From assembly GCF_035594765.1 (NCBI RefSeq), contig NC_085843.1, forward strand, positions 151,815,971 through 151,879,970: a stretch of 64,000 nucleotides of DNA, read 5' to 3'. The first letter of the stretch is position 1. The number at the start of each line of letters is the position of its first letter. Made by a program: the position numbers and the translations under genes. Of the stretch, positions 4,991 through 33,999 are shown piece after piece. The notes beneath the pieces are model-generated. The model was given only the letters and a program-made list of their open reading frames with translations. It was not told the DNA's origin and ran no database searches. This stretch comes from Anolis carolinensis. Taxonomy: Eukaryota.

Positions 4991-5308
4991 AGAAGTCATA
5001 GGGAGGAGGGAGCAAGCTTGTTTTCTGCTGCCCTGCAGACTAGGACGCGGAACAATGGCTTTAAACTACAGGAAAGGAGATTCCACCTGAACATCAGGAA
5101 GAACTACCTCACTGTGAGAGCTGTTTGGCAGTGGAACTCTCTGCCCCAGACTGTGGTGGAGGCTCCTTCTTTGGAGGCTTTTAAGCAGAGGATGGATGGC
5201 CATCTGTCGGGGGTGCTTTGAATGCGATTTTCTGCTTCTTGGCAGGGGGTTGGACTGGATGGCCCATGAGGTCTCTTCCAATTCTATTATTCTACGATTC
5301 TATGATTC
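4991..5308 (+). mobile_element. CR1 LINE 3' fragment (5'-truncated)
   Basis: Highly similar to the 3' end of the full-length CR1 (about 23086-23397). Encodes ...[29 protein letters not shown]... and ends in an ATTCTAYG tail. Confidence 0.92.
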
Positions 5309-5724
5309 TTGGAAATCACATCCCCAGAATCATCTTGCACTTCCTGGGCTTGGGCAGCCTGGTATAATGGGATGGCAGTGCCTCCTGAGCCTCCCTGCAC
5401 CCCATTCCCACCCAAAAATGCACATAAATGCTCTTTACCATTTACTCATGCATTTGGCTACCCACTCCAAAGCTCCATCATATCATCAGTGAGGGCAATC
5501 CAGGACTAGAACATTCTTCAGCCTTTAGCAATGGTAAGGAGACTTTCTGTGTATTTGGGAGGGGGGGGGGGGATGACAAGAGCCTTGGGATGCTGAGGCC
5601 AAGCTCAGCCATGCCGAACTGGCATCAGTATGGCTGGGATTTATGGCCAGTCCCCACCATTGAGACAGGTATAGCAATTCTGTGTGGCTGAGATGTGGTG
5701 CCAAACCCCTGCATATATATATAC

Positions 5725-7129: not shown

Positions 7130-7716
7130 GTAACACATTTTGAGCTCAACGATGTGGACAAGATCCTTGGAGAGGCGAGACCGACTACATGCATCCTGGA
7201 CCTCTGCCCATCCTGGCTGTGAGAGAAGCCAGAGGGGGCTTGGCCGAGTGGGTGAAATTGGTGGTGAATGCCTCCCTTTGGGAGTGCAAGTTTCCAGCGA
7301 GCCTAAAAATGGCTGTAATCAAGCCACTGTTGAAGAAGCCATCACTGGATCTCACTCAATTCGGAAACTTTAAGCCTATTTCCAATCTCCCCTATTTGGG
7401 CAAGGTATTGGAACATGTGGTTGCCTCACAGTTCCAGGGATTCTTGGTTGACAATGATTTTCTGGATCCGGCACAGTCTGGCTTTAGGCCAGGGCATGGT
7501 ACCGAGACAGCCTTGGTTGCCTTAGTCGACGATCTTCACCGGGAGCTGGACAGGGGGAGTGTGTCCCTGCTAGTTCTGCTGGACCTCACAACGGCCTTAG
7601 ATACTGTTGACCATGGTATCCTTCTGGGACGCCTCGCGGGGATGGGTCTTGGAGGTACTGTTTTACAGGGGGTCCACTCATTCCTAGAGGGTCAGTCCCA
7701 GATGGTGTCATTGGTG
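7130..7716 (+). mobile_element. L2-clade LINE ORF2 (reverse transcriptase) fragment
   Basis: Translation includes PLLKKPSLD...NFKPISNLPYLGKVLE...QSGFRPGHGTETAL...LVLLDLTTALDTVDH, typical L2 RT N-terminal motifs. Confidence 0.88.
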
Positions 7717-10700
7717 TAGGAGAGGAGCAGCTGGAGCAATGGCTCTCACCCAGACCACACACCTCAACCTCTTCTGGGCTAAAATGCCTTGAGATAAATC
7801 CCTGAAAAATCAGTTTTGCTCTCAGGAGACTTTGTAAATTTGAAGGCTGCCCTCAAGCTGCAAGGTCCCTGGTAAGAGCAAAAGCCACGAGACCAGCCGC
7901 AAGGATTGTTATTTTTTCCCCACGTGATTCTCAGGGGCAGTTCCAAATTCCCATCCTTTGCCAAACATGCCAGAAAGTTGCTCACCAACTTGATATCTTC
8001 CCCCAACATCTGTTATGAGGACCTATTTAAGATACCACCTAAGCTAATTGTCTAGTCCTCCATGACACTGTAGAATAGACCACTGATGGGGAAAATCCTG
8101 TTACTGATGGGGAAAATCCTTAGGAGGCCAGCAAAATCTTCCCCAAACAACACTAGTTCTCAAAAGTGAGATGATACTTTATATAAAATGCATTTGTTTG
8201 ACCTGCCTACATGCAGATACAGCCAGCCCTCGGTATTCATGGATTCTACAATCATTCAACCATCCATGGTAAGATTTTTTTTAAAAAAAGATCAACTATC
8301 CCACTTTGATTTTGACTTTTATATAGGGTAAGGGGCATCATTTCACAATGGCATTGCAAAAAATGTAAATAATCCATAGATTTTGATATCCATGAGGTTC
8401 CTAGAATTAAACTCCAGTAGACACCAAAGGCCCATTATAATTTGTCCAACAATATGGTAAAACAATTAACCTTAAAAGTTCCTGGAAATGTAGATTTGGC
8501 AAATTAAAAAATAACTAGGGAGAATGGCACTTCAGATTTTTCTCCAATGCAGGAAAATAAATACATGCTTTTGGGGGCTCACTTAACCTTTTGCAGCTTT
8601 CAAAATAAATATCAAACAATTGTTTGTGCATCTTTAAATATACAAATTAAATAGCTGAGAGTAGTTGGGTTTTTTGTTTTGTTTTTTTTTACAAAAAATT
8701 AGTTGCTTTACAACTTACCATATTGTGAATGCTAATGGTGAGGAACAGACAGCAGTTAAGATGTTAAAACTTTTAGAGATTATTTGCATCAATTTTGTCT
8801 CCTCAAAACGTGTCTGCAGCAAGTTGGTTTTGGGTGTAAATGAAATTACTTATTAAATGTCAGTAGCAGTAATAAGTGATTGATATCTAATTAATGTGTC
8901 ATATGTGATAGTTTTTAAATGTTAATTAATGCCTAAAATCTCTCTAAGTGCTGCTTGACCTATTAATTAATATTAGACAAAAACATATAATTGTCTCCTA
9001 AATGAAGTGGATCCCATAAGTGTTTCACTGGAAGTGATTCCAGGAAGGGAGGGTCAGGATGGCATCCTCTTTTTACAAGATGTTTTGGCATAGAAATTAT
9101 CTATGATAGGGTCGTTGTTAAGTTGGAAGAGAAAGGAAGTTCAGCATCAAGGTGATCGACTTGAGAACTGCTGAGCCACCAAATTGGTACTTTTATCAAG
9201 CAAAAATTTTTATGTCAGAAAGTGTCATAAAACTTTGTCAACAGTGCAGGGATGTGATTGCAATAGTTCTGGATAGACACACAAGGGCACTTGATTATAA
9301 TCTATGTATTCCCATGATCACATACAGATTGGTGTGCATGAATGTGTTCTGTGGTTTGTTTAGTTTTCTTTCTTGGGGAGAAAATAAATACAAACAGATA
9401 ACTGAGCTGAACTCCAAATGCACAGCACTCTGAACAATATATACAGAGAAATTTTTTTGGGGAAAATGTCATCAACAATTCCTATCAATTATTTTAATAA
9501 AGGTCTTACATAACCATGGGAACTATTCTAAGGGACCCATTTGGAAGAATAAATGTGTTTTTTTAAATAAAAAGTAAATGTTCAAGAGAATTTTGCAAAA
9601 TTATGTACTGGGTTACATCCTGTTTATTTCAGTGTAGAAAATTTAAATACATCAAAAATTTGGTATGATGCTGTTTTTCTCATGATGATCCATGCTATGG
9701 ATTAGATTACATAGAACATTTCATCATAAAATAGAATAATTTCAAGTCTGTCAAATGAGAAACCCATCTCCCTCCTTAAATCTTGCATGTTAGTGGGTGA
9801 AAGACTGGAGTAAGAATTGGATTGCAATGGGGGATTGCCCACTGATAACCTGAGGCCTCCATTTGTGCCATTTTGACAATAATAGTAACACATGTTTGAT
9901 ACAAACCAAAATTTCAGAATATGGAAGAAGACTTTAAAAAATGAGATGCAACAGTTTAGCAGCAACTTTGTCCAAAATTATTTATAATATTTAGGTAATT
10001 AAATTCATCACCCATGCAGAAAAAAAGTACTGAATGAACTCATTTCAGGTTCCAAGTCATTCATTTGTGCATTCATTGCATTCATTCATTCATTGCTCTC
10101 TAACCAGATGACTCCTAAGGAACTTTTCAAAAAGTAACAATATATCCCATATAACAATGTGACTATGCATAAAAGTAAAACGACAGTAGTACCTATGTTA
10201 AACTTTTGAATGCTCACTGAATATGTCTTCTGAACCATGAGTGAGTTACATGACAGAAGCAACATAGCATTCCTTTGATCAAAACAACCAGAAATATTTC
10301 ATTGTCTTTACTCATGTGTTCCAATCACCTCTTCAATCAACCACAGATTCCACTGAAGTGCCAGCTTGCAACTCATTCAAAATGTGAACCTTTCTGGGTA
10401 AGAAGTGAGTGACTACTACAGTGATGACAAGCTTCATGCCACAGTAGATCAGGATGAGTGGCAGTGTTGGTTGCAACATCAAAAATGGGGATTTTCTAGT
10501 CACTGGACTTCTTCCCATGGCCCCTGGGGCCATGCCGTTTTTCCAAAAGACGCTGGTGAAACAGAAGGCATGAGAGGTGCTTGTGATGCCTTGTGCATGC
10601 TCTTTTCTTCCCCCATCACACGGTGGAGACAGGAAAAGGTGCATTGGGACCTTGTCCCTGTTCTCATCATATGGGTGAAAGAGTGGCAACATGTGTTGCT

Positions 10701-13527
10701 GCATTGCCTTTCCCCCCATCAGATGGAGGAAAGGGCAGAAATATTCAGGTAGCCCAGTTAGAGCTACCCAAAACATGCTTTCCTCTCCTTCAGGAGGATG
10801 GCACTCTGCAAGCCCTGTCCAGAAGAAGAAAAAGGGCAATAAAAACCCCAATGTGATGAGGTCATTACGTATTGACAGGTACCCAACCATATTGATCTTT
10901 ATTGTAAGACCTGATTGCCTCTTTGCTTTGTCATCAATCCCCATTATCCAGTTATCCAAAAAGTCAGTAAGCAGGACATGAAATTGACAATTTTTTAAAC
11001 CCCAACATTTGTTATGGACAATAATTCTGATTGACAGATTCAGAGCCTTTTGTGATCCTTTTGCAAAGAAAACCTAGGTGAATGTATAGGATGCAAAGTG
11101 ACTTTCCTGTTCTCCTATGTCAAATAGGAAAATTAGCAGAAGAGATTGTGCAGAATCATAGGGTTGGGGTCAAGGGTGATTCATAGAGGAGCCCATGCCA
11201 CCTGAGATTTTAGCTCTTCTCTCCCAGTACCTGAGAAGAAAGCTAAATTTCTAAAAATGTCAGACCAATTACTGAAATGAAGCATTTATTGTAGCCATGT
11301 GGGGCTCTTAAATACATAATTAATATATAGATAGAGGGACTAAAGATCTATTATTCTGTTTTTAAAATCAGTTATTTAAATCATTTTTTGGAATAAATCC
11401 ACTGGGGAGAAAATGGAAGGAATTGAAGGACGGGCTTTGACCATAAAACTCCTAAGAGAAACCACAAGAGAGACTGTCTTTTGTGAGGTATGACATCCTT
11501 GTTCTACTCCACTTCTTTTGAGATGAAGGGCAGAGAAGTGTAATGGACCGGGATTAAGCAAATTGCTGGAATATGAAACTGTCAGTGATTACTGGATAAA
11601 CTACCTCCAAAGTCAAAGGGAGAGTTTCTCTTATTGTCATTTGTTGAGAACGTCTTTGGGAAAGTGCTGTTACCTTTGTTTCCTGCTTTTGGGTTTCTTG
11701 TGGGTATGCATTTATTTGAACTCCCACCATAAAATAAAAAGATCAGACACAGAAAATGTATCTAAGGGGCCATTTCTTGATTTATAACTTCTGGAACCAC
11801 CTGTGAAAGAAAACAATGTTAAGATGAATTAACCTGTAAGGACTTAACTCTTGTGTTATTAACCACCTAGTGAGAACTCTCCTTGGTCTGGAGTGTCACT
11901 CCCCATGACCACCCTCCAGGTCATATGAGCACCACAGATCCTGAAGGACAACCACATTTCTTTGATTGCACCTCTCAGCAATCATCATTGGAAGGCTACC
12001 ATGAGGGTGCTCCCTCTCAAACGTCATAGTTTTTCAAGAGTGAGAACTAACATTCCAGTCCTAAGGGTAGCCCCTTATTGCAGGCCCCATCTCCCAAAAC
12101 TTATAGGAACTGTTATCGAAGTAAACTCTTCCCCTCTAAAGGAGGGGGTGCCACAATGCCTACTGGGACTATCTCACCTCTTCAATGCCAAGGGAACTTA
12201 TTTAAGGGGCTCCACTCCTAAGCCAATTACCACACTCAACCAAAATGGTGTGGGGTAGGCAACCCTCCCCCCAAAAACGAAGAAGAAATTCTTACCCAAC
12301 CCATAAGTGATCAGTTTCTACTCACATTGTCCATAGGATAGAAGGGTAGGTTACAGGATGAATGATGAAGGACCATTGGAGGTATGGATTGGCTTTAAAT
12401 AGCCTGCCAATCCACCCTTGTCACATGTTGAGGGGCCAGTCATGCCAGCCGGTCTAAACCAAGTCTGGCTTTCTTCACAGGGGTCTTCAAGTGCCCATCC
12501 ACACCTTAGGCTTCACTTGCTGGCTGAAGGTGGGGTATATTGTGGGAATAGTATCCAAGTCGTGTTTTTGTTTGAGCCAGAATAACACTTTAATGCTTTA
12601 CTCTTGCACCATCCTTAGTTTTTTCTCATCACAATTTCCTGGAAAAGCCTATTTATTCCTGGATTTTTCTTTTTTTCTTCCCTGTTGTTTTCTATGTATC
12701 CCCTGGAGAAAGAGAGGAGAAGACTTTGGCATTCACATTCCTTTATTGCAGTTTTCCTGTGCTCTTTGTTCTTTGTACTATGCTTATCAAGGGACGCTTC
12801 AGAATCAAACACATACATTCAATCCTATTACTGTAGTGTAGTGCCACTTGAAAATATTCTAAATGGTAAGCATCAGACAAAGATTCATAGTCTATCTTTC
12901 TTTATTTCATTTTTAATAAAAATCCCAGCCATTGAGCAGTATGTTTCTATTTATTAAATTGTTTGTTACCTTAGCCAAACTGACATATTATTGTACATAT
13001 TGTATATACAATAATGTTTGAACGGCTGGTTGCCATACAGCTTCAAGCTGTCTTGCCTGAAGGTTATTAGCTAGATCCATTTCAATTGGGTTTCTAGGTC
13101 GGATATGGCACAGACATTGCCTTCTGTATCCTGATGAACAATCTCTGTTGGAAAAGGGGTATAGAGAGTGTGACCTTAACAATTATTTATGGATTTTGTG
13201 ATGGCATTTGAAACCTCTGACCAATGCATATTTTGGATAAACTCTGCAAGGAGGAGGACCTAGGATACCATTTTGTTCCCACTTCAAATGTCCATTGCAG
13301 AAGTACTGCTTGAAGACTACTGCTTGGCTTTCAATCCATTGTTCAGTGTGGTCCCTCAAGGGTCTTGCCATGCATGTTGTTCACCACCAATATTTGGACA
13401 CAGTATAAGGCAATGTACAATGTGAGGCTGGTTTTTATCAGTACTGTAGCAAAATTAAGTCTTGTTTTCAAGAAATTGGAAGGAAACGTGTCTGAGATTC
13501 ATTCATTATTGATTGGCTAAGGGCCAG

Positions 13528-14259
13528 GAGCCTTATCACCAAGGTGAAAGAAGAAAGTGCAAAAGCTGGGTTGCAGTTAAACGTCAAGAAAACCAAGATC
13601 ATGGCAACTACACCTATTGATAACTGGCAAATAGAGGGAGAAAACATGGAGGCAGTGACAGACTTTATATTTCTAGGTGCAAAGATCACTGCAGATGCAG
13701 ACTGCAGCCAGGAAATCAGAAGACGTTTACTTCTTGGGAGGAGAGCAAAGGCCAACCTTGACAAAATAGTGAAGAGCAGAGACATCACACTGGCAACGAA
13801 GGTCCGCATAGTCAAAGCAATGGTTTTCCCCATAGTAACCTATGGATGCGAGAGCTGGACCTTAAGGAAGGCTGGGCGAAAGAAGATAGATGCTTTTGAA
13901 CTTTGGTGCTGGAGGAAAATCCTGAGAGTGCCTTGGACCGCAAGAAGATCCAACCAGTCCATCCTCCAGGGAATAATGCCCGGCTGCTCACTGGAGGGAA
14001 GGATATTAGAGGCAAAGCTGAAGTATTTTGGCCACATTATGAGGAGACAGGAAAACTTGGAAAAGATCATGATGCTGGGGAAAATGGAAGGAAAAAGGAA
14101 GAGAGGCCGACCAAGGGCAAGATGGATGGACGGTATCCTTGAAGTGACTGGCTTGGCCTTGACGGAACTGGGGGCGGTGACGGCCGACAGGGAGCTCTGG
14201 CGTGGACTGGTCCATGAGGTCACGAAGAGTCGGAGATGACTAAATGACTGAGCAGCAGC
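13528..14259 (+). mobile_element. RTE/BovB LINE 3' fragment; uninterrupted C-terminal RT ORF (13544-14239)
   Basis: GLQLNVKKTKIM, VTDFIFLGAKIT, MVFPIVTYGCESWT, LKYFGHIMRR, EGKRKRGRPRARW. Short (GCA)n tail. Candidate TSD AAGGGCCAG (13519-13527) / AAGGACCAG (14260-14268). Confidence 0.92.
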
Positions 14260-17510: not shown

Positions 17511-17679
17511 AACAAAGAGATGAGAGTTCTTATCTTCTTGTGAAGCTTATTAAATGTCATGAGCAATTCAGTACCATCTCAACCTAATTTACATCATCAG
17601 GTTGTTGAGGAAAAGGTATGAATTCCATGAAAAAGGTGTGGATATACTGTATAAATAAATGGGTTACTACAACATTGGA

Positions 17680-17895
17680 TTATCTTGATGTGTGCTCTGA
17701 ATTCAGGATGGGAGGCCACCTTCAGAAAGGAATATGGAAAAACAAGGTGGTTTCAAATTAGTAAGGAGTCAGGCAAGGTAGCATTATGTCCCCTTATCTG
17801 TTTAATTTGTACACTGAATGTATCATAGGTAAATTTTATTTAGACTGTGAGAAAATAGGAGGAAAAATATCAACAATTAAAGATATGCAGATGAC
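17680..17895 (+). mobile_element. Old degenerate RTE-clade LINE fragment, left part (interrupted by CR1)
   Basis: Degenerate EYG-T-WF, GVRQG-I-SPYLFNLY-E and RYADD (AGA TAT GCA GAT GAC) motifs. Confidence 0.7.
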
Positions 17896-17914
17896 AATTA
17901 AAGATATGCAGATT

Positions 17915-18947
17915 AGTTGGTTCTCGCAGAAGCAGAGGAAGCAGGAGGACATTTTTGCTCCCTGGCTTCAGGTAGAATTTGGCTAAGATTTGGCTAAGAT
18001 TTTAAACTGAGTTTGGGCTTGGCTCCTGTGGTCAAAGTCTAACTGTTGTGTGACTGTTGTGTTGAAAGAGAGCCAGGTACTTAAGTTGATTGACAGCAGG
18101 CATTGTCCCCTGTTAATTGAGTTTCTGGGAAAGCTTTATTTGCCAGTGTGAGTTTCTGCCAGAGCCTGATCCCAGAAGGGCAGTTGGTTCTCGCAGAAGC
18201 AGAGGAAGCAGGAGGACATTTTTGCTCCCTGGCTTCAGGTAGGATTTGGCTAAGATTTGGCTAAGATTTTAAACTGAGTTTGGGCTTGGCTCCTGTGGTC
18301 AAAGTCTAACTGTTGTGTGACTGTTGTGTTGAAAGAGAGCCAGGTACTTAAGTTGATTGACAGCAGGCATTGTCCCCTGTTAATTGAGTTTCTGGGAAAG
18401 CTTTATTTGCCAGTGTGAGTTTCTGCCAGAGCCTGATCCCAGAAGGGCAGTTGGTTCTCGCAGAAGCAGAGGAAGCAGGAGGACATTTTTGCTCCCTGGC
18501 TTCAGGTAGGATTTGGCTAAGATTTGGCTAAGATTTTAAACTGAGTTTGGGCTTGGCTCCTGTGGTCAAAGTCTAACTGTTGTGTGACTGTTGTGTTGAA
18601 AGAGAGCCAGGTACTTAAGTTGATTGACAGCAGGCATTGTCCCCTGTTAATTGAGTTTCTGGGAAAGCTTTATTTGCCAGTGTGAGTTTCTGCCAGAGCC
18701 TGATCCCAGAAGGGCAGTTGGTTCTCGCAGAAGCAGAGGAAGCAGGAGGACATTTTTGCTCCCTGGCTTCAGGTAGGATTTGGCTAAGATTTGGCTAAGA
18801 TTTTAAACTGAGTTTGGGCTTGGCTCCTGTGGTCAAAGTCTAACTGTTGTGTGACTGTTGTGTTGAAAGAGAGCCAGGTACTTAAGTTGATTGACAGCAG
18901 GCATTGTCCCCTGTTAATTGAGTTTCTGGGAAAGCTTTATTTGCCAG
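17915..18947 (+). repeat. Tandem array of 267-bp monomers (three full copies plus one 232-bp partial) forming most of the CR1 5' UTR
   Basis: AGTTGGTTCTCGCAGAAGC starts at 17915, 18182, 18449 and 18716 (period 267). Copies are essentially identical; copy 1 has GGTAGAAT where the others have GGTAGGAT. Confidence 0.95.
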
Positions 18948-19115
18948 GCACCTTTAGTAAAGGCACCTTTACTAACTATTCTTTGCAGTACATACAGGAA
19001 ACAAAGCAACATAAACAAATACACAAAGACGTGGTTTGTTGCAGTCTGCACATAAAGTGCGTGCATATTACTTAACTGTACAAAGATCCCACTTGGCCAC
19101 CACGCTCACCAAGAG

Positions 19116-20387
19116 ATGCAACAAAAGCAAAACATTCCCATCACATGCACCAGCTGTGGCATGTTCCGCTTTTTCACACAAAAACTAGACAACTACATCT
19201 GCTCCAAATGCAAACAGATGACTCTGATGGAGCAGAGGATCCAACAGCTCGAGCACCGTATTAAGACCCTTAAGGACATTCAGGCACTCGAGCTCTTCTT
19301 GGACACTGCACAACACGCTGCTGTAGATCAGCAGCCTGCATCACACCAACACCACCAAGACCATGATCAGGAACCTTATGGGGAGATCAACTCAAAGGTA
19401 GACAACCCTCAGGCTTGGAAGGAGGTCACCCATAGAAGGAGACGCAGGACCAGGCAGCCTCCACAGAACTCCTCTGCTCAGCTGCATTTACACAACAGAT
19501 TTGAAATTCTTACATCATTAACATACAATCAGGAAACACATCTTGTGGAGGACCACAGTTTCTTAGATACCACTCAGTGGACCATCCTGGATCAATGCGC
19601 AGGGGATAGCCCTGACAGGGACAGTGCATCACCACAGTCACACTTATGTAATCATGCAAATGCTCCACCCCCAATCATAGACCAGGAGCAACAGGAACAT
19701 CCTTGGGAGAGTAATGGGCTCTCGGATGTATCTCAATGGATTGTCATTGATGAATGCACTGGGGATGTTGAGGAGGAGGACAACACTTTACACCTACATG
19801 ATTCACTTCAACAGGAACACTCTTCAGGGGACATACACACTGTCTTGCACAAAAGGGACCCTGTCAATCCTCAAAGGAAACAGGTCTTGGTAGTAGGTGA
19901 CTCCCTCCTTAGAGGAACGGAAGCCATCATTTCCAGACCGGATGGGATGGCTCGAGAAACATGCTGCCTCCCGGGGGCAAAAATACACCATATCACTCAG
20001 AGGCTCAGCAGGCTCCTAAAGCCCCATCACCCTCCCCACCTTATGTTGATTCATGTAGGTACCAATGACACCGCTAGGCATACTTTTCAAAAGATCACAA
20101 ATGATTTTCGAGCTCTGGGAACAAAGCTAAAACTGTATAATGTACATGTGATCTTTTCATCCCTCCTCCCCGTTGTAGGACATGGCTCTACAAGGGCCGG
20201 AAAAATAGTACAGGTCAATAACTGGCTCAGAAAATGGTGTCAAGAGGAGCATTTTGGCTTCCTTGACCATGGTCTACTCTTCCAAGAGGATGGACTACTG
20301 GCAAGCGATGGGGTGCATCTCACACAAGTAGGAAAACATCTTTTTGCACACAGACTCACAAACCTCATCAGGCGCACTTTAAACTAA
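19116..20387 (+). CDS. CR1 ORF1 protein: N-terminal CxxC-x14-CxxC zinc finger, coiled coil, basic patch, C-terminal SGNH/GDSL esterase domain
   Basis: CTSC...CSKC; [15 protein letters not shown] heptads; HRRRRRTR; esterase blocks VVGDSL, HVGTND and DGVHL. Confidence 0.93.
20378..20384 (+). other. Candidate -1 ribosomal frameshift slippery heptamer T_TTA_AAC at the ORF1/ORF2 overlap
   Basis: ORF1 ends ACT TTA AAC TAA, giving an X_XXY_YYZ heptamer in the correct phase. The -1 frame is ORF2. Confidence 0.6.
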
Positions 20388-20578
20388 ATACACTGGGGGA
20401 GGGGAACAACAGCCTGGCGAACACTATATTACCCACGACCACAGGGAACCGCCGTAAGGCTAAACGGAGGGCTGCACAAACACAGCAAGGACCAAGTACA
20501 GAGAGCACAATAATCCCAAATAAACAGTTCGAGGGGAGGTCACAGGGGCTTACATGTCTTTACACTAATGCTCAGAGC

Positions 20579-23314
20579 ATGGGAAATAAGCAAGACGAAC
20601 TCCAACTCCTAGCACAGCACCACACATACGATGTCATAGGCATCACTGAAACCTGGTGGGATGACTCCCATCACTGGAATTTAACCATTGAGGGCTATAA
20701 CCTCTTTCACATAAATAGAACAAAGGGGAGAGGAGGGGGAGTAGCTTTATATGTCAAAAACAGTTACGTTGCAGAAGAAATGCAAGACTGTAATCCGGGA
20801 AACCAGCTTGAAAGCATCTGGATAAGAATCAAGGGAACCGGGACTCAAAAAGATCTTGTCGTGGGTGTCTACTACAGACCTCCGAGTCAGGATGAAGGAC
20901 TTGATGAAGCCTTCTGTCAACAGCTGACCAAACAGGCACAAAGAAGAGATATAGTAGTCATGGGCGATTTCAATTATCCCGATATCTGCTGGAAAACAAA
21001 CTCAGCCAAGAGTACAAAGTCCAACAAATTCCTCACTTGCCTTGCAGATAATTTTATGGTCCAGAAGGTAGAAGAGGCAACAAGGGGATCAGCAACTCTT
21101 GATCTAATCTTAACAAATGTGGAAGACCTGATCAATACAGTTGAAGTGGTTGGATCCTTAGGGGCAAGTGACCATGTGCTCCTGCAGTTTGCAATACAAA
21201 GGAATGCTGAAACTAAGACAAGTCAAACACGCATTCTGGACTTTAAGAGAGCTGACTTCCAAAAAATGAAGGAATTACTGAGCGGCATTCCATGGACGCC
21301 GATATTAAAAAACAAGGGAGTTAAGGATGGATGGGAGTTTTTCAAAAGTGAAATACTCAAGGCGCAAATGCAAACAGTGCCAACAAAGAAGAAAAATAAG
21401 ACAAGTGCAAAGAAGCCAGAATGGATGTCCAAAGAACTTCTAACTGAGCTAAAGCTCAAAAGTGACATGCACAAGAAGTGGAAAAGGGGAGAAATCACCA
21501 AAGAAGAATTCAAACGTATAGCCAACTCCTGTAGGGAAAAGGTTCGCAAGGCTAAAGCGCAAAATGAGCTCAGGCTTGCCAGGGACATAAAAAACAACAA
21601 AAAAGGTTTTTTTGCTTATGTTGGTAGAAAAAGGAAGAAAAAGGAGGCGATAGGGCCACTGCAAGGAGTAGATGGGGTGATGGTGACAGGGGATAGGGAA
21701 AAGGCAGAACTGCTTAATGCCTTCTTTGCCTCGGTCTTCTCACAAAAAGAAAGCCATCTTCAACCTCAGCAACATGGAATGGACGAAGGATTGGGGGAAA
21801 TCCAACCCCAAATAGGGAAACAAGTTGTCCAGGAACACCTGGCCACTCTAAACGAATTCAAGCCCCCAGGGCCAGATCAGCTACATCCAAGAGTATTGAA
21901 GGAACTAGCGGAAGTTATTTCAGAACCACTGGCAATCATCTTCGAGAGTTCTTGGAGAACAGGAGAAGTCCCAGCAGATTGGAGGAGGGCGAATGTGGTC
22001 CCTATCTTCAAGAAGGGAAAAAAGAACGACCCAAACAATTACCGTCCGGTCAGCCTCACATCAATACCAGGCAAGATGCTGGAAAAGATCATTAAGGAAG
22101 TGGTCTGCAAACACTTAGAAACAAATGCGGTCATTGCTAATAGTCAACACGGATTTACCAAAAACAAGTCATGCCAGACTAATCTGATCTCTTTTTTCGA
22201 TAGAGTTACGAGTTGGGTCGATACAGGGAATGCCGTGGATGTAGCATATCTAGATTTCAGTAAGGCCTTCGACAAAGTCCCCCACGACCTTCTGGCAAAC
22301 AAACTAGTAAAATGTGGGCTAGACAAAACTACGGTTAGGTGGATCTGTAATTGGCTAAGTGAACGAACCCAAAGGGTGCTCACCAATGCGTCGTCTTCAT
22401 CATGGAAAGAAGTGACAAGTGGAGTGCCGCAGGGCTCCGTCCTGGGCCCGGTTCTGTTCAACATCTTTATTAACGACTTAGACGAAGGGTTAGAAGGCAC
22501 GATCATCAAGTTTGCAGATGACACCAAACTCGGAGGGATAGCTAACACTCCAGAAGACAGGAGCAGAATTCAAAACGATCTTGACAGACTAGAGAGATGG
22601 GCCGAAACTAACAAAATGAAGTTCAACAGGGACAAATGCAAGATACTTCACTTCGGCAGAAAAAATGGAAATCAAAGATACAGAATGGGGGACGCCTGGC
22701 TTGACAGCAGTGTGTGCGAAAAAGATCTTGGAGTCCTCGTGGACAACAAGTTAAACATGAGCCTACAATGTGATGCGGCAGCTAAAAAAGCCAATGGGAT
22801 TTTGGCCTGCATCAATAGGGGAATAACGTCTAGATCCAGGGAAGTCATGCTCCCCCTCTATTCTGCCTTGGTCAGACCACACCTGGAATACTGTGTCCAG
22901 TTTTGGGCACCGCAGATGAAGGGAGATGCTGATAAGCTGGAAAGCGTCCAGAGGAGGGCAACTAAAATGATTAAGGGTCTGGAGAACAAGCCCTATGAGG
23001 AGAGGCTTAAAGAGCTGGGCATGTTTAGCCTGCAGAAGAGAAGGCTGAGAGGAGACATGATAGCCATGTACAAATATGTGAGGGGAAGTCATAGGGAGGA
23101 GGGAGCAAGCTTATTTTCTGCTGCCCTGCAGACTAGGACACGGAACAATGGCTTCAAACTACAGGAAAGGAGATTCCACCTGAACATCAGGAAGAACTTC
23201 CTCACTGTGAGGGCTGTTCGGCAGTGGAACTCTCTCCCCCGGGCCGTGGTGGAGGCTCCTTCTTTGGAGGCTTTTAAGCAGAGGCTGGATGGCCATCTGT
23301 CGGGGGTGCTTTGA
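20579..23314 (+). CDS. CR1 ORF2 protein: APE endonuclease plus reverse transcriptase (true coding start probably upstream; frame open from 20267)
   Basis: APE motifs GITETW, YYRPP, MGDFN, LDLIL, SDH. RT motifs [37 protein letters not shown]. No stops or frameshifts. Confidence 0.96.
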
Positions 23315-23410
23315 ATGCGATTTCCTGCTTCTTAGCGGGGGGTTGGACTAGATGGCCCTTGAGGTCTCTTCCAACTCTACTATTCTATGATTCTATGATT
23401 CTATGATTCT

Positions 23411-23585
23411 ATGACACCATACTACTACCAGAATAAATAGTAAAAACTTGAAGCAATAACTGAAGAAAATCAGGAGGGAAATTGTCAAGGAAGGTTTGCA
23501 AATGAACAATAAGAAAAGAAGCACAATGACCATAGATGTTTTACATAACTTTAAAGTAAATGATGAAGATATTAAAACAGTTCAA
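23411..23585 (+). mobile_element. Old degenerate RTE-clade LINE fragment, right part (continues 17680-17895)
   Basis: Resumes GAC ACC ATA CTA CTA (D-T-I-L-L), then degenerate EGLQMNNKKRSTM corresponding to RTE GLQLNIKKTKIM. Confidence 0.65.
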
Positions 23586-24949
23586 GCTTGGTGGGAGGTA
23601 GGGACAAAGCAGACGTTTTCCCCTAATCTGTGGTGGAAAACAGGTATACAATTTACATCTCAGTATGCACATAAGGCATCAATTTTGGTGAAGGCCAGGA
23701 ACGGGAACCCCCACCTGTGAGTTTGGTCAACTGAGGTGGGGGCAAGCAGAAATTGCCTTAGAGCTACGGAGGAATTCTAATGCCGGAAGTCGCTCGACTT
23801 GGAATTTGAATACTCCATGCAGTTTCCCTACTCAGTTGTGCTGGTTACGACAAAGGAACTCAGATGTCTCGCCCAAGTTAGCTGAGGAGTGAGTCTGGGA
23901 TAGACACTGCCTCGGTTTACACAACACCAAGTTCAAACCCCTACTTTAAGCTAGTTGCTAGTTGCATGAAGAAAGTTTAAATAGGTAACTATTTAATAAA
24001 AGCTGCCTATATTTAATCCAACACAGTTGTCTGATCTCATTATTTCATTGATGGGTAGGAAAATTGCACATTGCTTCTTTTTCTGAACAGAAATATTGTT
24101 TTCTGTGATTTTTTTTAAAAAAATCTCACTTTTTTTCTGCACAAAGAAACCATGTGTAACTTCAAAATGTCCTGACTCATAAGAAACATAATATCAGCAT
24201 TTCTGAATATTTCTCAGGTGATGCAACTGACTAAGTTAATGATTTGTGCATATAATGGTATTTTTTTCATCTCAAAGTAGACTGGCTGGTTGGATTATTG
24301 AGGGATAAATTTATTTAATTTATTTTATGAAGTTATGCATTGTCCTTCAATATAAATATTCCCAAGGCAGTGTACAGCTTTAAAAAAGGACAGACATAGC
24401 AAAAAAAAACAAAACAAAAAAACATAAACATTGCCACATTAGGAAGTAATCTGCTCAGACACAGATAAGAATGCTTGTTCAGCACAAATGCTGCAATGTT
24501 AACTACATGTAGAGTACATTGCAGTAGCCTAATTGGGTTATTACTAGTTCAGACTACTGTAGCTAAGGCCCCATTTACACTGCATATAATAAAGTTGGAA
24601 ACTGCACCAATATTGTCAATGTCGACTTATGTAATGTCATTTAACCTCATTGAACTTCAATGTATGAGTCTACACCAGAGGATTCCAAAGATTTCATGTT
24701 GATGAGATGCTCTTCAGACATGTATCATTTTCAACATGACAATTCGCTTTTTCTAGCAAACCAGAGGTTAAACCAGCCCCTTGTAAGATATACAAACAGA
24801 TATGTAAATTGTAGTAATGACATGTATAGGTACACAACATATTTTACAAAAATCTTTGATTTGTATTTTTTAAATATATAATTTATTGCTCATCTCACAC
24901 AGATTCATTACATTTGTGTGACATACACACTGCAGCCAACACATTAACA

Positions 24950-25350
24950 TGCCACCACACAAATTTTGGAAAGATCTGGTTTACACTGACCATATAACAT
25001 GGCAGTGTCGAATGGTTTTTTGTTATCCTGTCCAGAAAAGGCTGTAGCTGGTACACCAATGTGAGCTAGCTCTAACCTTTCCATGCCAGAATCCACCTGG
25101 ACCTCTAGTGAAAAGATAGAACTACAGCTGAACTGCCCACTTGCTACTTTGGGACAATATAGCCTCATCCTGAGTAAATTCTTACCCAATTTCCAGAGAT
25201 GAGACATACCAGTTTCCAAGGCCTTCATCTTATTGGGATTCAGCTTCCGTTCATTGGCCCTCATCCAACCTGATACAACCTCCAAGCAGTGATTCATCAC
25301 ATATACAGCCTTAGCAGACTCCAATGACAAGGAAATGTGTAGTGAAGTCA
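24950..25350 (-). mobile_element. Old L2/CR1-group LINE RT fragment
   Basis: Minus translation NHCLEVVSGWMRANERKLNPNKMKAL resembles the L2 'CL..I..WM..N.LKLNP.KTE' motif. Confidence 0.65.
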
Positions 25351-26714
25351 TATATTCTCTCTTTCCTACCCAGAAATGTAGATCTGTGCAATTCAGGGCC
25401 TGGGGCTATGTTTAGGAAGGCAAATGTGGCATGCTCTGAACAAAAGGTGGCTGGACTCAGAAAACTTTGTTTTCAAATCAAAAATTAATTATACCCCCAC
25501 TGACAAGGATGAAAGTAGGATAGCAAACATACTTTATGTTGTGCATTTTTATATCAGTACCACTATTAAAATCTCAAAGCATGCCACATAAAACTATGGA
25601 AACATGAAAACTGTCAAAATACGGAAATATAAAGTAATTGTAACCTGGAGAGAATGCACTCTGTGGCAGTAGAGGTTTTGAAACCTATGAACAACAGAGA
25701 TAACTCTTCTCAGCATGATTTGGAAGGGAGGAAGGGACATATGAAAATATATTTCTGGCTTCGTTTTTCACTATAATAACTTGGTTGCGTATTTTGTGTA
25801 TTTCATGGAACTTTTGAAATCACCCTTAATGGTCAGTTTCTTTTATAAACAGAAACAATGTTTCTTCCATACTGTCTGGTCTCAAAGGCCCACTTTGGAT
25901 ATGGAAAAAAGAGAAGGCAGCAGTCACAGAGAGAGCAGAAGAAATCAGGAAGATTGGAATAAATGAGAGCTGAATAAGCAGGGGAAAAGTGAAAGGTCTC
26001 TAATGTATTTTTGCCTGTTTATTTTATTGTTTTCATGATTCTCAGCTTTCTTCAACCCTTTAGAAGTGTTGGGTTCCAACAGACATTTTTCCATAGAATC
26101 CCTACTGCCCATGCTGTTCATGGATGCTAAGCAGTTAGAGTTTAATAGATTTGAAGGGCACTAAGGTCTGGTATTCTGGCCCATCCACTTGTTTTTTTTC
26201 TTCTTGTTGCCTATTTTTTTTTTACTGGACAGCCTCCAAATGTGTTGGATTAGAACATCCTGTATAGTCATGTAGAAGTCTAAAAAATAGTTAAAATCTA
26301 CTCCACAAAACTGGGCCAATTTCTCTGTGGGCCAGTGCAAGTACTGTACCTTAATCCTTATCAGAAAAGGGAGTATAGTACTGAAATGCAACAGCTTAGT
26401 CCATCCAGGAGAACCCAAGAAGCAATGTCCTTTTCTGCTCTTTCTGCTGTGATGCTGCTTCTGGCCTTTTTGAATGCCTGTGCAAGGAAATGACAGTGGC
26501 GAGTCCCCTGAGGTGACCTTGATGCTTTTGTTTCCTTGCAAAATGATCCTTAACTTATCCATGGGTCACATCAAAATCTGCCCTCAGCTTATTCATGAAG
26601 TCAACTTATACATGGATATACATGGTAAGTAGAGTTCATCTTTTTGCCATATTGGGCCCAGAGAGGCTTGTAATTTAAGTTAAAATAAAATAATAGTTAA
26701 AACAATATATAATA

Positions 26715-27513
26715 CAGTAGAGTCTCACTTATCCAACATTCACTTATCCAACGTTCTGGATTATCCAACACATTTTTGTAGTCAATGTTTTTAATACATC
26801 GTGATATTTTGGTGCTAAATTCGTAAATACAGTAATTGCTACATAGCATTACTGTGTATTGAACTATTTTTTCTGTCAAATTTATTTATTTATTTACAGT
26901 ATTTATATTCCGCCCTTTTCGCCCTGAAGGGGACTCAGGGCGGATTACAATGAACACATATATGGCAAACATTCAATGACAACAGACAAACAACATATAT
27001 AGACAGACACAGAGGCATTTAACACTCTTTTCCAGCTTCATGATTCCGGCCACAGGGGGGAGCTGTTGCTTCACTGTCCACTAGTGGCTGTATTTCCTCA
27101 TTCCTTTCCTCGTGTTTTGCTGGCAGTTTTATGATGTTGTAAATTAGTTAAATTAGCCTCCCGCATAAAGCCTACCTAAATTTCCCTAATTGACAGACGC
27201 AACTGTCTTTCGGGGCTGCATAGGTCAACAGCAAGCCAGGCTATTTAATGGTCAGGGGCTTAACCCGACCCAGGCTTCGAACTCATGACCTCTCAGTCAG
27301 TAGTGATTTATTGCAGCTGGTTACTAGCCAGCTGCGCCACAGCCTGGCCCGGGCAATTTGTTGTATAATGTGATGTTTTGATGCTTAATTTGTAAAATAA
27401 TAACCTAATTTGATGTTTAATAGACCTTTCCATGATCCCTCCTTATTATTCAACATATTTGCTTATCCAATGTTCTGCTGGCCCATTTATGTTGGATAAG
27501 TGAGACTCTACTG
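26715..27513. mobile_element. Tc1/mariner (Tigger/pogo-like) MITE interrupted by a SINE
   Basis: TIR CAGTAGAGTCTCACTTATCCAAC / GTTGGATAAGTGAGACTCTACTG flanked by TA. Uninterrupted paralog at 29826-30148. Confidence 0.88.
26882..27354 (-). mobile_element. Anolis SINE2-like tRNA SINE nested in the MITE
   Basis: Reverse complement of 1637-2113. Short AATTT duplication at the junctions. Confidence 0.85.
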
Positions 27514-27579
27514 TATTGAAGTTTTAAAATACATTAAGCAGACAATCCAATTAAAACATTCAAAACATAATAAAGATCC

Positions 27580-28094
27580 CTTCAAGGTGAAAGAATCTTT
27601 TTCCATGTATGGTGGACCTGAAATATAGTTCAAGAATTCTGGAAGAAAGTGGTGAAACAAACAAACAATATGATAAACACAAAGGGTTAAAAAAACAACT
27701 CAGAAATGTGCTTATTGGGACTATTTGGCAGGTGTATTAGCGCAGGAGATGATGAAATTTGTCAATATTGCTTTGTTGCTGCGAGACTAATAAAAACATG
27801 GAAGGGGAAAAAAAGATTGAAGAGATAAATTAGTAGATTATATCCAAATAACCAAGCTGACAAATAGCAGCAGAGAAGGAAATAATGAAGGATTCACAAA
27901 CAAATGGAGGCTGGCACTTGCGTATTTGGAAAAGAAGACAAAGGCAGATTTGAAGATTGCATAAAGGGGATTTAGTGAAAGAAGACGTATGGGTAGTTGC
28001 TGGTTAGTTATGTGATCCATATTAAGGGGTGCCGGACTTCATGGGGGTTGGGTTCAGGAAATGTTTAACAAACACTAACTGTATGCCATTTCGT
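27580..28094 (+). mobile_element. Degenerate L1/Tx1-like LINE ORF2 3' remnant
   Basis: FHVWWT...VQEFWKKV resembles the L1 C-terminal CCHC region. Runs into the gap. Confidence 0.45.
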
Positions 28095-28295
28095 NNNNNN
28101 NNNNNNNNNNNNNNNNNNNNNNNNNNNNNNNNNNNNNNNNNNNNNNNNNNNNNNNNNNNNNNNNNNNNNNNNNNNNNNNNNNNNNNNNNNNNNNNNNNNN
28201 NNNNNNNNNNNNNNNNNNNNNNNNNNNNNNNNNNNNNNNNNNNNNNNNNNNNNNNNNNNNNNNNNNNNNNNNNNNNNNNNNNNNNNNNNNNNNNN
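28095..28295. other. Assembly gap (N run)
   Basis: Run of about 200 N. Confidence 0.99.
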
Positions 28296-29309
28296 TAGCC
28301 TGTAATTTCTATTAATGCAGTTCAATGCCATGTTAAGAGGCAATGGTCAGCATTAAGTCAAATCAGCTCCATTTGTCATGCAACTGCAGCAGAGCTGATT
28401 TGCCACCCGTTTGGTATAAAGCGCCCATGAAGATGCACCCAAAGATCAAGCTCTTCCCCAAATATATTAAGACACAAAAGGGAGATGTGTTTTTTGGAAT
28501 AGAATATAAGCAGTATAGGGTTTTATCGGTCATAATCAACACCTTGAATTGTGACCACACTAAGATTGGTAGACAGTGAAATTATTTCAACATAAAGATT
28601 ACATATTCCCTGGAACCTATCTCAGTCAGCAGTCTGCTTAAAACATATTATACCCACAGAAGTTTCTGAACAGTTTCCAGGCTGTGCTACATCAATTGTA
28701 TCATAGTAATCCAAAGTGGCTGTAATCATGTGTCTCCTTAGCCGGATTTGACATCTCTAGAAATAGGCAGAGCAGGTACACATTTTAACTGTACACACTC
28801 CTGGCTCCCAACAAACCTGGGGGAACTCCTGGAGTCAGGGCTGGTTGCTCCAGTTATAAACCTGAAATTTCAAGGGATATATCCATGTTTCTTGATCTGA
28901 TTTTTGATTCATTGTTTTGGAGAGAGAAACAATGGCAAGAAAATGTTAGACAATGAAGGAAACAAACAAATACAAAATAAATAATAGTGACTGAGAAAAC
29001 AGGACTGCTACAGCAGTTTTTGCACTCATTTTGGGATGATCTTAGAACAAGTTCTTCAAAGCAAGTGGTAGAATAGGGAGTCTAAGAGAAATGTGTATGG
29101 AGAGAGAGGCAGTGGGAAGGCATATATTAATCCTGGGCTGTTGGACCTGCCTTGACTCGTCTGTATGCCTTTTGCAACAGACATATGTTTGTATGCTACA
29201 AAGGAGTATCTTATCTTGTGCCTGTACTTATTATTCTTTTTTATTGCTGAGATATTGGATTGAAAAATGTGCCATGTATGTGAATGTTCCTCCATTCCTC
29301 TCTCCCTCC

Positions 29310-29383
29310 CTCCCTTCCTTCCTTCCTTCCTTCCTTCCTTCCTTCCTTCCTTCCTTCCTTCCTTCCTTCCTTCCTTCCTTCCT
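29310..29383. repeat. (TTCC)n microsatellite
   Basis: Direct inspection. Confidence 0.95.
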
Positions 29384-29669
29384 GTTTTATTGTGTGTTGC
29401 AGGTCTGTAACACGGCCATTTTCCAGCCAGAAGAATGAAGGAAAATTGGAGAGTTTTATTCTTAATAGCTGGGTGAACAGCAATAATATCATTTCTAGGG
29501 GATGATAGGTACTTTGATTTCTGCCTATTCCACCTAGCCACTAGTTCTGTTGGTTGAGCAGCAGCACAGTAATCAAAGACAATACAATATTCCAGCCTCT
29601 CCAGTAGTAAAAAAGAAAGTTCTGATGGTATATAATAGATTTCAGTTAGGGAGAAATCAGGGATATCAA

Positions 29670-29727
<58 letters not shown>
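29670..29727. repeat. (GATA)n microsatellite
   Basis: Direct inspection. Confidence 0.95.
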
Positions 29728-29825
29728 TAATTGACATAAAATCATCATATATACACAGAGGATCCAAGGATAGATACAACTGTTTACCCATCCTCCCATT
29801 TCTTGAACAGGACTTTTTGTATATA

Positions 29826-30148
29826 CAGTAGAGTCTCGCTTATCCAACGTAAACGGGCCAGCAGAATGTTAGATAAGCAAATATGTTGGATAATAAGGAG
29901 AGATTAAGGAAAAGCCTATTAAACATCAAATTAGGTTATGATTTTACAAATTAAGCATCAAAACATCATGTTATGCAACAAATTTGACAGAAAAAGTAGT
30001 TCAATATGCAGTAATGTTATGTAGTAATTACTTTATTTAAGAATTTAACACCAAAATATCACAATGTATTGAAAACATTGACTACAAAAATGCGTTGGAT
30101 AATTCAGAACGTTGGATAAGTGAGTGTTGGATAAGTAAGACTCTACTG
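29826..30148. mobile_element. Tc1/mariner (Tigger/pogo-like) MITE, intact, inverted relative to 26715-27513
   Basis: TIRs CAGTAGAGTCTCGCTTATCCAAC / GTTGGATAAGTAAGACTCTACTG with TA flanks. Confidence 0.88.
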
Positions 30149-31849
30149 TATTGTTATTTGAATCTCTTAACCTCACCACACCTCTTCTTTTTCTTTTTCT
30201 TTTTATAGGGAGTGATAATTTATACTTTTAATACTTTTTTCATGTCTTAAGTGCATTAATGCTCATTTCATGTTTGTGTGTGTGTGTATTTAAATGTGAT
30301 TTCTTTGATGAAATGTCTTGTAAGCTATGGAAATATGCTGATTTTTGAGGCAACATGTGCTTTATCCTGTTACCAGTCATGGAAAGTGTGAAGTGGATAT
30401 TTCCATACTAATCAAAATGTACTGAAATATAAACCTAAGAGATATTCTTTCATTTCCTCATAGTAATTCAGAAGAACCAGACAAGCCCTTGCCTACAGAT
30501 CTGTAATGAACAGACAGTACATGAAGCCTGGGCAATAAGATTTCTCTCCTCACCATGGCTGAGGTGTCTGATTACCCCTATATGCTGAGGAACTGATTTA
30601 TATCCAAGGGACGTCCCTCATTTTTAATAGTAAAATTTTAGTACTTTTATTTACTTATATATTATAAAAACATGCAGGTGGTATTCTTCTTAGTTCCTCA
30701 AGATATGTGTCAACTTCTACCTTTCTATGCAATGTCCAATAAAAATTTCCTTAGGCTTCTCTTATTACATACTTTGAAATTACTAGGAAGTTGTAAATGT
30801 CAAGAGTTGTCCATAGAATAGTTGCTGCAATTTGAATCCGGGTCTGTTGAATTTGGCTTTTTTTAAAAATGCAGGAGATTCTGTAATGGATCTTCCAATG
30901 TTTCATCTAGTTTTGCCCAATGTAATTTTTATTATAGAACTTGACAATCCATGAAAATGTTTGAATAAAGTTTAGAAACAATGTAATAGATGCCAAGAGT
31001 CTGGGCATTGCTTATATACTACATAAACAACTTTTCAGTGGTTGAGGGCAACAGTGGCCTTCAGGAAACCATTGTGAATTGACATTGCCACAGTTGCTAC
31101 TGAAAATGCAGTGCAGGCAGGTGCTAGGACATTCAGAACAGAGATACTAGGTTTTTGTTTTGTTTTTTGAAGCTTAGGAAGGAAGGGATAGGGAAACATA
31201 TCACAACTTCAATGGCAGAGATTTTGGTTTTGAGTGATGTCATAAATTCTGAACAAGAAGGATGAAAAACATCAGGCCACATTTAGCCCCCTCTGCCAGG
31301 TAGATTGTAAATTGTTATATGTAGCAAAAGTACTATGACAGACCTAACCTAGAATGTAATTTTGACATGAGTAAGCACACTAAGGAGTATAACAATAACA
31401 TCATTTGAAATTGGTAGAATTTAAAGTCATAGCTGTGCTAGTCTGGAATATCAGTATTCAAAGGGATCTTGCAGCAACTTACAGACTAAGTGAGAGAAAG
31501 ACACTGGTGGCTTAAGCTTTGCTTGTTTTTTTGTTTTTTGTTTTTTGCATACAGAGAAGCATGCCTGTGCAATATTTGCAGTTTTTTGTGCAAAAAATCA
31601 CTTCTGGATTATTTTTTTTCCAGAATAAATCCTGAACTGTGAATGGTCCTTGAAAGTAGAACAGTTTTCAAAAATTTCCTTGCAACAAGAAGGAAAATAG
31701 TTAAATTTTGTTCATGAAAACCGAAATGTACCAAGATTTATATCTCTATTATTTCATTTAGACATGAATCCATCTATTACTGGGTGAGATCATTAGCAGT
31801 ATTTGGATTGGTGCCATATGTAAGCTCTACTCCTTATAGTTAGTTTGGG

Positions 31850-31990
31850 CCATGTAGGTGTTGGAGTTGTGCCTGGATGCTGTAATGAGCTGGTTATCAG
31901 CCAATAAACTGAAGCTGAACCCTGTCAAGATGGACAGTTTGTGGACTGGTGGATCTTGGATGTGGGGATTAAGTGAACAGTCTAGTCTGG
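31850..31990 (+). mobile_element. Old L2-like RT fragment
   Basis: Translation CLDAVMSWLSANKLKLNPVKMD. Confidence 0.55.
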
Positions 31991-32518
31991 ATGTGTGAGT
32001 AAACATTATGGATGGTCATTCCACCCAACTGAGACACATGAATGTAGAGCTATCCCTTTCAAGAGAACTTTATATTTCTCACCGAATGTAGAGTTTCTCT
32101 TGAACCTAATTTCTTGCTATTTCCTATTTATCCTTTTCCTCAAGGTAGCACACAAAGGCTTTCTACCGCAAACAACAGAATGAGTGCTTCTCCTCTTCAT
32201 GGAGAATTTCTATGTCTCCAGTCTTGGTTCTCTCCCTTTCTGTGTTCCTAATTTTCCAAAGACTCTTTCTTCCCCATCAGTGGTCTCACCTTAGCCTGCT
32301 GCAGTGCCTCTTTCCCTACTATTACTTTGTCATTCACACCTCACACCCCACCTTATTTTCTTCTCTCAGCTTGTGCTTTATCCTTGCACTTGTCTTCCTC
32401 TATATACTGTCTTACTGCATCTCTCACTTTCTTTTCTCTCAGGATCCTTCTACACTGACCCATAAAGCAGGTCCGATCCATAGCCATCCCCTTTCCCATC
32501 GTCATGGCTGGATACAGC

Positions 32519-32613
32519 CATGTTTCTTACTTTTGTGGGTCTAGAAACATTCTGGAGAGTGTCATGAGTACACTCTCCAGAATGTTTCTAGACCCACAAA
32601 AGTAAGAAACATG
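32519..32613. repeat. Perfect inverted repeat (44-bp arms, 7-nt loop)
   Basis: 32519-32562 is the exact reverse complement of 32570-32613. Confidence 0.95.
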
Positions 32614-33999
32614 CCAAGTTAACTGCCAAGTTAACTCTATCCCATTTTAGGAGTCTCCCCCAATGTGCTTAACCCAGAATGAAAGCTTCATTACTCCCCC
32701 TCCCCATTTTGAGGTGTTTAGCTGCTGTGGGGCTGATTGAATCCCATACTAACCTAAGTGGTCAGTGTATAGGTGCCATCTTTTCCATTCTCTGGTTCAC
32801 TTTACATCCTTTCAGTGTTTCCCTCTCTGGTGTCTTGCATTCCACATCTCAACCTTACTTCTCAGTGAAAAGTGGGAGTAAAGACGGGGTAGAGAGAATG
32901 TAGCTGTAATAGAAATAGAGGAACCTTAATTGGTACTCAATTTGTTTCTGGAGAACCAATAAAGATGTGTAATATTATTACATCAAGCAAGGCATTAAAA
33001 GCAATATACTCCTTCAACAGAAATTACAAACAATATCCAGTTCTAATAACTGTATTGCAATGTTTTTCCTACTATGCGTGTATCAACATTGTAGAATTAA
33101 TGCAATTTGACACCAGTTTTACTGAAATGGCTCAATGGTATGGAATTCTTGGAGTTGTAGTTTTGCCTCTACATGGCAAAAGATTTTGTTGATTATTGTA
33201 AAAAAACAAAAAACAAAAAAAACATAAATCAAAGTTTGGAATCCATTTCTGCTGATGGTTCAGACAGGTGTTTGATAGCATTCCTAAATTCTGGGTAAAA
33301 TTTAACTAGCTTATCTTTATGGCATTACTTGGGTTATAACTTGGGTCAAGCCTTCTGGATCCCAGTAAAAGTCATCCATTTCCTGATGCTTTCCTTCACA
33401 TTATTTTAGATATGGAACAATTCAAATATGGTATCTTTCACTTTCAAAATAAATAAAGAAGACCAATTGACAACTCCAGCATTATACCACAACATGTTGC
33501 TGATGTTTCACTGTGCCTTTCTGTAGCTACTTTTAAAAGCTATGTTTATATATCCTGGTAAGTTATAATTTTAATCTTAAAACAGGTTTCTAAAAAAAAA
33601 CCCATTCAATTTTAATGAACTGTTTAGTGTTGCTAATTCTGGTGTTATATATCCCTGTTTGTCTGGGTTGGAGAGCTTCCCTGAAGGTTCAAGTGTTCTA
33701 TTTTTGAACAAAACAAATGAATGTTAAAAACCTTGGGTTAATAATAGGAGTTGCTATTAGAAACAAATTCCAACACACTTGAAGAGAGTGTTAAGGACAT
33801 GACCTTAAAGGAGTTATCGCTTCATGTTTTTTAACCCTCATACCTCAGGCAGGATATTTTCATTTTCCATTCATTTTATTTTTGCAGAGTGTGATGTACA
33901 GTGTAAGCATTCTACACCATTGTCACCTGTAGAGTTATAAATAGCACCCCACACATTTCTTCTCCTTGCCATCTTTTTAATAATAAAAAAACAGACAGA

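Follow-up and report, generated by a model that had tools for sequence, protein, structure and literature searches.

A tandem array of 267-bp units at the 5' end of an Anolis carolinensis CR1 element: a putative monomer promoter

In a stretch of 64,000 nucleotides from Anolis carolinensis (hereafter the window), the two open frames of a CR1-like element are preceded by nearly four copies of a 267-bp unit. Does this array belong to the element, is the tandem state the usual condition of the unit in the genome, and could the units act as promoters, as a first-pass annotation of the locus had proposed? The features on which the answer depends are the following.

17700..17896, + strand: left flank, a decayed reverse-transcriptase LINE fragment that served as insertion target; reads ...RYADD to the junction
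17891..17896, + strand: left copy of the target site duplication (TSD), ATGACA, 6 bp
17897..17914, + strand: 18 extra nt at the 5' junction, a 17-nt copy of 17876-17892 plus one T
17915..18181, + strand: monomer 1, 267 bp, G>A at 17976; 5' end of the element at AGTT
18182..18448, + strand: monomer 2, with an exact TGATTGACAG (18354) and an initiator-like GGC-A-GT spanning the junction with monomer 1
18449..18715, + strand: monomer 3, same as monomer 2
18716..18947, + strand: monomer 4, partial, 232 bp, without the last 35 bp
18948..19115, + strand: tether, 168 bp, non-repeated, with a perfect 10-bp hairpin at 18954-18975
18970 and 18988, + strand: splice-like signals in the tether, branch-point-like TACTAAC at the former position and an acceptor-like pyrimidine tract with terminal CAG at the latter
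19116..20387, + strand: ORF1, 423 aa, with CxxC..CxxC, a coiled-coil-like stretch and an SGNH/GDSL esterase
20267..23314, + strand: ORF2, a frame open over 1015 aa between stops, with an AP-like endonuclease and a reverse transcriptase
23315..23413, + strand: 3' UTR, with a hairpin at about 23339-23378 and a (ATTCTATG)4 tail at 23382-23413
23411..23416, + strand: right copy of the TSD, its ATG common with the last tail unit

The array, the element and its insertion site

The tandem array was confirmed both by TRF (period 267 bp, 3.9 copies over 17915-18947, 99% matches) and by comparison of the copies; its score of 2059 is the highest among the 37 TRF rows of the 64-kb window. Units start at 17915, 18182, 18449 and 18716. 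Copies 2 and 3 show no difference from each other, the only change in copy 1 is the substitution already annotated (G>A at 17976), and copy 4 matches over 232 bp before diverging, its last 35 bp being absent; the copy number in the reference assembly is thus 3.87 (three 267-bp units and 232 bp). Two internal direct repeats had been described as 11 bp long. This holds for ATTTGGCTAAG (11 bp, at unit positions 63 and 74) but not for ACTGTTGTGT, which has 10 letters and recurs with a period of 11 (positions 128 and 139). Each unit contains one CpG (observed/expected 0.07), and no further unit copies were found elsewhere in the 64-kb window. The predicted RNA fold of the unit gives a weak signal (z = -2.5; 3 of 200 shuffles equally good), two Rfam matches lie far under the gathering score and were not accepted, and a 24-nt unit motif had no match among metagenome contigs.

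Judged by its sequence, the element behind the array is an intact LINE of an anole lineage and, as annotated, a CR1: its ORF1 has the esterase, its ORF2 the endonuclease and reverse transcriptase, and its 3' end the hairpin and octamers. ORF1 matches PF13472 above cut-off, with the CxxC..CxxC motif visible in the alignment, and the profile of this alignment finds PDB 4c1b ('ORF1-encoded protein', E = 5e-30); the ORF2 frame matches PF03372 and PF00078, both above cut-off. The 3' end of CR1 has been defined as a hairpin followed by repeats of the octamer ATTCTRTG (PMC8665684), and here a hairpin (-18.8 kcal/mol, z = -1.7; 8 of 200 shuffles equally good) is followed by the octamer tail (ATTCTATG)4. 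ORF1 shares 99% identity with A. carolinensis proteins in a cluster of 71 members and differs at 3-21 residues from the 11 proteins of equal length among the 15 members listed; therefore, this CR1 family is young. Proteins related to ORF1 come from squamates, turtles, crocodilians and frogs. Four CR1 families with 117 full-length copies of 4.6-5.8 kb have been reported from A. carolinensis, where 27,802 polymorphic insertions were counted and CR1 is the most polymorphic LINE clade (PMC5389967).

The target of the insertion is a decayed LINE fragment, 77% identical over 44 bp to a reverse-transcriptase fragment at 62380-62423 that matches RVT_1; by motif likeness we take it to be of RTE type. 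Its reading frame resumes to the right of the element (DTILL...) and is continuous across the site. The 6-bp TSD encloses both array and element and, therefore, the array lies inside a recent insertion. At the 5' junction, the 18 extra nt create a 21-bp tandem of target DNA (17873-17913), and a cap-derived or extra G is absent. We infer that, on reaching the end of its RNA template, the reverse transcriptase switched to target DNA, in which case AGTT would be the true RNA end and not a point of truncation. A sequencing run that probably represents genomic DNA (X2; 1,734 million letters) contains a 714-bp contig (contig 8, depth 28.6) which matches 17650-17896 and then, without interruption, goes on with 295 bp that do not resemble the window; the match stops exactly at the last base of the TSD (17896). 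This appears to be as expected of an empty allele, and the insertion is probably recent and polymorphic. The TSD and the empty-site pattern fit insertion by target-primed reverse transcription.

Other retroelement remains are scattered over the window. A 5'-truncated CR1 3' end with a short tail lies at 4992-5312 (94% identity over 318 bp to 23085-23402), and reverse-transcriptase matches at 7144-7719 and 62266-62772 mark further fragments. Two more fragments (13496-14239 and 33907-34689) have no Pfam match; by their motifs the first is presumably RTE-like and the second Penelope-like. The window, which has 39% GC, also contains a GC-rich island at 37300-37700 (60-70% GC), possibly a host promoter or first exon, and a 201-base assembly gap of Ns at 28095-28295.

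The unit in sequencing runs

Contigs from 4 of the 24 listed runs (X1, X2, X3 and X7, belonging to four studies) were aligned to positions 17650-18225 only, i.e. to the flank, unit 1 and 44 bp beyond it. None of the listed runs is recorded as RNA; X1, X3 and X7 were called RNA by guess, and their want of flank coverage proves nothing alone. Contigs show neither transcript starts nor strand nor level. In these three of the four runs, a closed 267-bp loop of the unit was assembled. X2 yielded no row for a loop joint; 1,606 of its contigs cover both the unit junctions and the interior, with a summed depth of 0.83-0.95 million in the junction bins, no lower than the 0.74-1.02 million of the interior bins, and 28.6 in the flank. 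Such sums of contig depth do not amount to copy numbers: the estimate for X2 is about 600-1,100 units if contig overlap inflates the depth 31-fold and 18,000-33,000 units if it does so 1-fold, the low estimate being close to 117 full-length copies with 4-5 units each. Position 17976, where unit 1 of the window is deviant, reads G in all four runs. Two conditions under which the annotated array would have lost its meaning, namely a single unit multiplied by the assembler and a purely local duplication, thus find no support at the contig level, since unit junctions and the tandem state occur in the runs of four studies. That the array is the usual genomic state of the unit and not an accident of this locus is well supported.

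The way in which the array ends was also followed. In two of the three runs called RNA (X1 and X3), the unit exits into the window's own tether. In X2, three contigs exit into diverged sequence, of which 23 of 30 letters match the tether; the tether is the best match for it on the + strand of the window, and only 1 of 2000 shuffles did as well. It seems from this comparison that a second subfamily shares the 267-bp unit. The left arm of the tether hairpin is absent from the diverged exit. Among other variants, X1 has two forms of the unit one letter apart (depth 497 and 1112) at 17983-18042 (unit positions 69-128) and X2 a one-base deletion at 18057 in eight contigs; units thus vary across the family, in contrast with the homogeneous array at this locus. 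In X2, one loose end (two contigs) connects unit position 84, and not AGTT, with other sequence; a further 104 loose ends exist.

With 1-5 units, the element would have a length of 4.70-5.77 kb, compared with the 4.6-5.8 kb published (PMC5389967), although the published span may merely reflect four family consensuses. The ratio of loop to exit depth is 10:1 in X3 and 168:1 in X1, while no exit was seen in X7. Ratios of 10-168 exceed what is expected from 4-5 units per element and are, therefore, unexplained by them. Longer arrays, arrays free of CR1, or short or antisense RNA could explain the excess of loop. These depths are also what one would look for if the unit were mainly a transcribed tandem repeat, satellite-like or in much longer arrays, that the CR1 had captured at its 5' end or had given rise to from there; what it does for the element would then be secondary and the working promoter possibly the last unit or the tether. 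Such a reading agrees with the loop excess in X1 and X3 and the missing exit in X7, with the upper DNA bound of 18,000-33,000 units and with a word share of 0.80 in 15 of the 20 matching runs, which equals the share of the array in the query; moreover, satellites born from parts of transposable elements, CR1 included, have been published (PMC9659126). We nevertheless consider it unlikely, given that the lower bound of 600-1,100 units is near what the full-length copies would supply, that two distinct tether exits exist, that the array sits within the TSD, that ATG is depleted on the sense strand of the element (see below) and that the RNA status of the runs is itself a guess.

Leader sequence and the putative promoter

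Array and tether make up a leader of 1,201 nt before ORF1, in which neither ATG nor AATAAA occurs. When unit plus tether was shuffled with dinucleotides preserved, 3 of 5000 sequences came out free of ATG (83 of 5000 for the unit alone), and none of 260 background stretches was free of ATG. The lack of ATG is consistent with selection acting on a translated leader.

The start of the element at AGTT had been annotated as initiator-like. The initiator consensus is BBCA(+1)BW, and the first A of the element matches it only if a previous unit supplies GGC, i.e. in tandem context; this context is present at unit junctions and missing from the inserted 5' end. Positions matching the consensus number 6 among the 267 of the unit. 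An exact TGATTGACAG occupies unit position 173 and so precedes the start of the next unit by 95 bp, a site that was spotted after the fact and whose degenerate form occurs at two places outside the array in the 64 kb. This sequence is the Prep-Pbx DECA motif (a TALE site), which is occupied near NF-Y sites in the zebrafish blastula (PMC6023610). The unit was searched for TATA, a DPE at +28, a CCAAT partner of the DECA site, a GC box, an E box and the YY1 motif (CCATNTT, either strand), and none was found. The features that are there are compatible with a start at one unit being driven from the unit upstream of it, as the annotation had suggested.

The explanation that we favour, with moderate confidence, is a bipartite 5' UTR in which variable numbers of 267-bp monomers, acting as putative promoters, precede the 168-bp tether. 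Each monomer would most likely be a promoter module for RNA polymerase II. The DECA site at -95 in one unit would serve the initiator formed at the junction with the next, and RNA would start at the AGTT of a unit. A daughter copy would then begin at a unit boundary; the part upstream would be lost and promoters kept in the remaining units. By analogy with mouse L1, slippage or unequal exchange among near-identical units might restore their number and homogenize them. Several observations speak against this explanation: (i) the unit is CpG-poor and devoid of the TATA, DPE, CCAAT, YY1, GC box and E box elements sought, (ii) the loop-to-exit depth of the runs guessed to be RNA exceeds the 4-5 units per element, (iii) the degenerate DECA site recurs outside the array, (iv) one X2 loose end lies at unit position 84, and (v) the 5' junction carries no extra G. 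A bolder version, which we hold only tentatively and think rather doubtful, would have the green anole's most successful LINE carry a self-renewing promoter free of CpG islands that arose independently of rodent L1, with DECA aimed at an initiator that exists only in tandem, transcription in the early embryo or germ line, arrays far longer than assembled and abundant monomer RNA.

Alternatively, each unit might act from downstream of its own start, as an internal promoter or enhancer in the manner of human L1, and be multiplied for strength; an upstream unit would then not be needed and no unit would be lost per cycle. The element does begin at unit position 1, with unit 1 complete and all motifs downstream of the start, and in chicken the 5' UTRs of CR1 act as internal promoters of reporter genes (PMC2734521). 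At odds with this arrangement are the initiator-like context, which is confined to unit junctions and missing where the inserted element begins, the absence of a DPE at +28 and the spacing of DECA at -95, which suits the next unit; we regard the arrangement as fairly improbable.

The unit and the tether also contain sequences resembling the consensuses of splice sites: the unit has donor-like CAG|GTAGGA and AGT|GTGAGT at its positions 58 and 234, and the tether has TACTAAC with a pyrimidine tract and CAG, an acceptor-like end that is retained in the diverged exit of X2. The array could accordingly be imagined as part of a 5' UTR intron, with ORF1 expressed from a spliced mRNA with short leader and the unspliced RNA being copied, an arrangement compatible with the monomer-promoter explanation. 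No loose end or joint was found at either donor in the three runs guessed to be RNA, despite 30-bp overlaps; this counts weakly against the intron, given that contigs drop rare forms, and we give it a small probability. An assembly artefact or a duplication private to the locus is hardly credible, near-perfect identity of the units and the lack of an aligned record spanning the array notwithstanding, in view of the unit-to-unit junctions in four runs from four studies (the 5' junction of the locus being in none of the listed records) and of X2, in which tandem units abound although the insertion appears to be absent.

Two other origins were discarded. A Pol III origin was set aside by eye, as the unit shows no match to the B box consensus of Pol III promoters and a T5 run is present; a circular RNA formed by back-splicing would, from the donor and acceptor positions, measure 268 and not 267.

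Comparison with known systems

The first-pass annotation held such arrays to be untypical of CR1. This was slightly overstated, because 32-bp direct repeats, with E boxes, have been described in the CR1 5' UTRs of turtle and pufferfish (PMC2734521) and the published range of element lengths fits a varying number of units. No 267-bp array was found in print: the available parts of PMC5389967, PMC11303007 and PMC4316615 make no mention of a monomer array for anole CR1, and the literature consulted describes no 267-bp monomers for it, although the original description of the families (Novick et al. 2009) may hold one. The present element resembles the A. carolinensis CR1 families of that study (as given in PMC5389967) in that its ORF1 is 99% identical to host proteins. 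CR1 5' UTRs differ among subfamilies, and that of chicken CR1-B has about 240 bp (PMC2734521). The anole element is similar to the CR1 of turtle, pufferfish and chicken in the role of its 5' UTR as a promoter (putatively so in the anole) and to that of turtle and pufferfish in having direct repeats there; it differs in its 267-bp units, 1.2-kb leader and lack of an E box. Among 30 loci with distant relatives of ORF1 (31-73% identity over fragments), many of them apparently decayed and with 5' ends that are not delimited, none matched the unit or tether and none had tandems with a period above 33, a result of little weight given their condition. Other repeats were noticed at two of these loci: a 22-bp minisatellite of about 22 copies adjoins a CR1-like ORF1 fragment (L026, 565-1042), and a 73-bp direct repeat lies upstream of another such fragment (L020, 2368-2521).

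The closest counterpart is found in another LINE clade and another host. Rodent L1 has monomers followed by a tether; its youngest subfamilies have 3-4 units, its 5' ends are clustered at preferred unit positions, one Tf element needs at least two units, and mouse monomers show antisense activity (10.1101/2021.12.03.471143). As in mouse and rat L1 (L1Md A, Tf and Gf), tandem units of a few hundred bp are followed in the anole by a non-repeated tether before ORF1. Rodent L1 monomers are CpG islands, and the 5' UTRs of lizard L1 have no tandem duplication (PMC5381506). The anole unit is CpG-poor, with its one CpG, and has no YY1 motif, so that the CpG-island and YY1 features of a promoter of the rodent L1 type are both lacking. 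On sequence grounds, the 5' end of this CR1 looks constructed in the manner of mouse L1, without the CpG and YY1 features of that promoter class. The best reading of the analogy is a monomer promoter and tether like those of mouse L1 that would have evolved independently.

Both the architecture of monomers plus tether and the CR1 family were already known, which limits the surprise. The 5' ends of CR1 have so far been poorly resolved. To our knowledge, what is understood of how LINEs retain a promoter despite loss of 5' sequence in each cycle, and of how monomer arrays regrow, comes almost entirely from mouse L1; a CR1 family that is active and polymorphic and has near-identical 267-bp units would be an independent case from a reptile.
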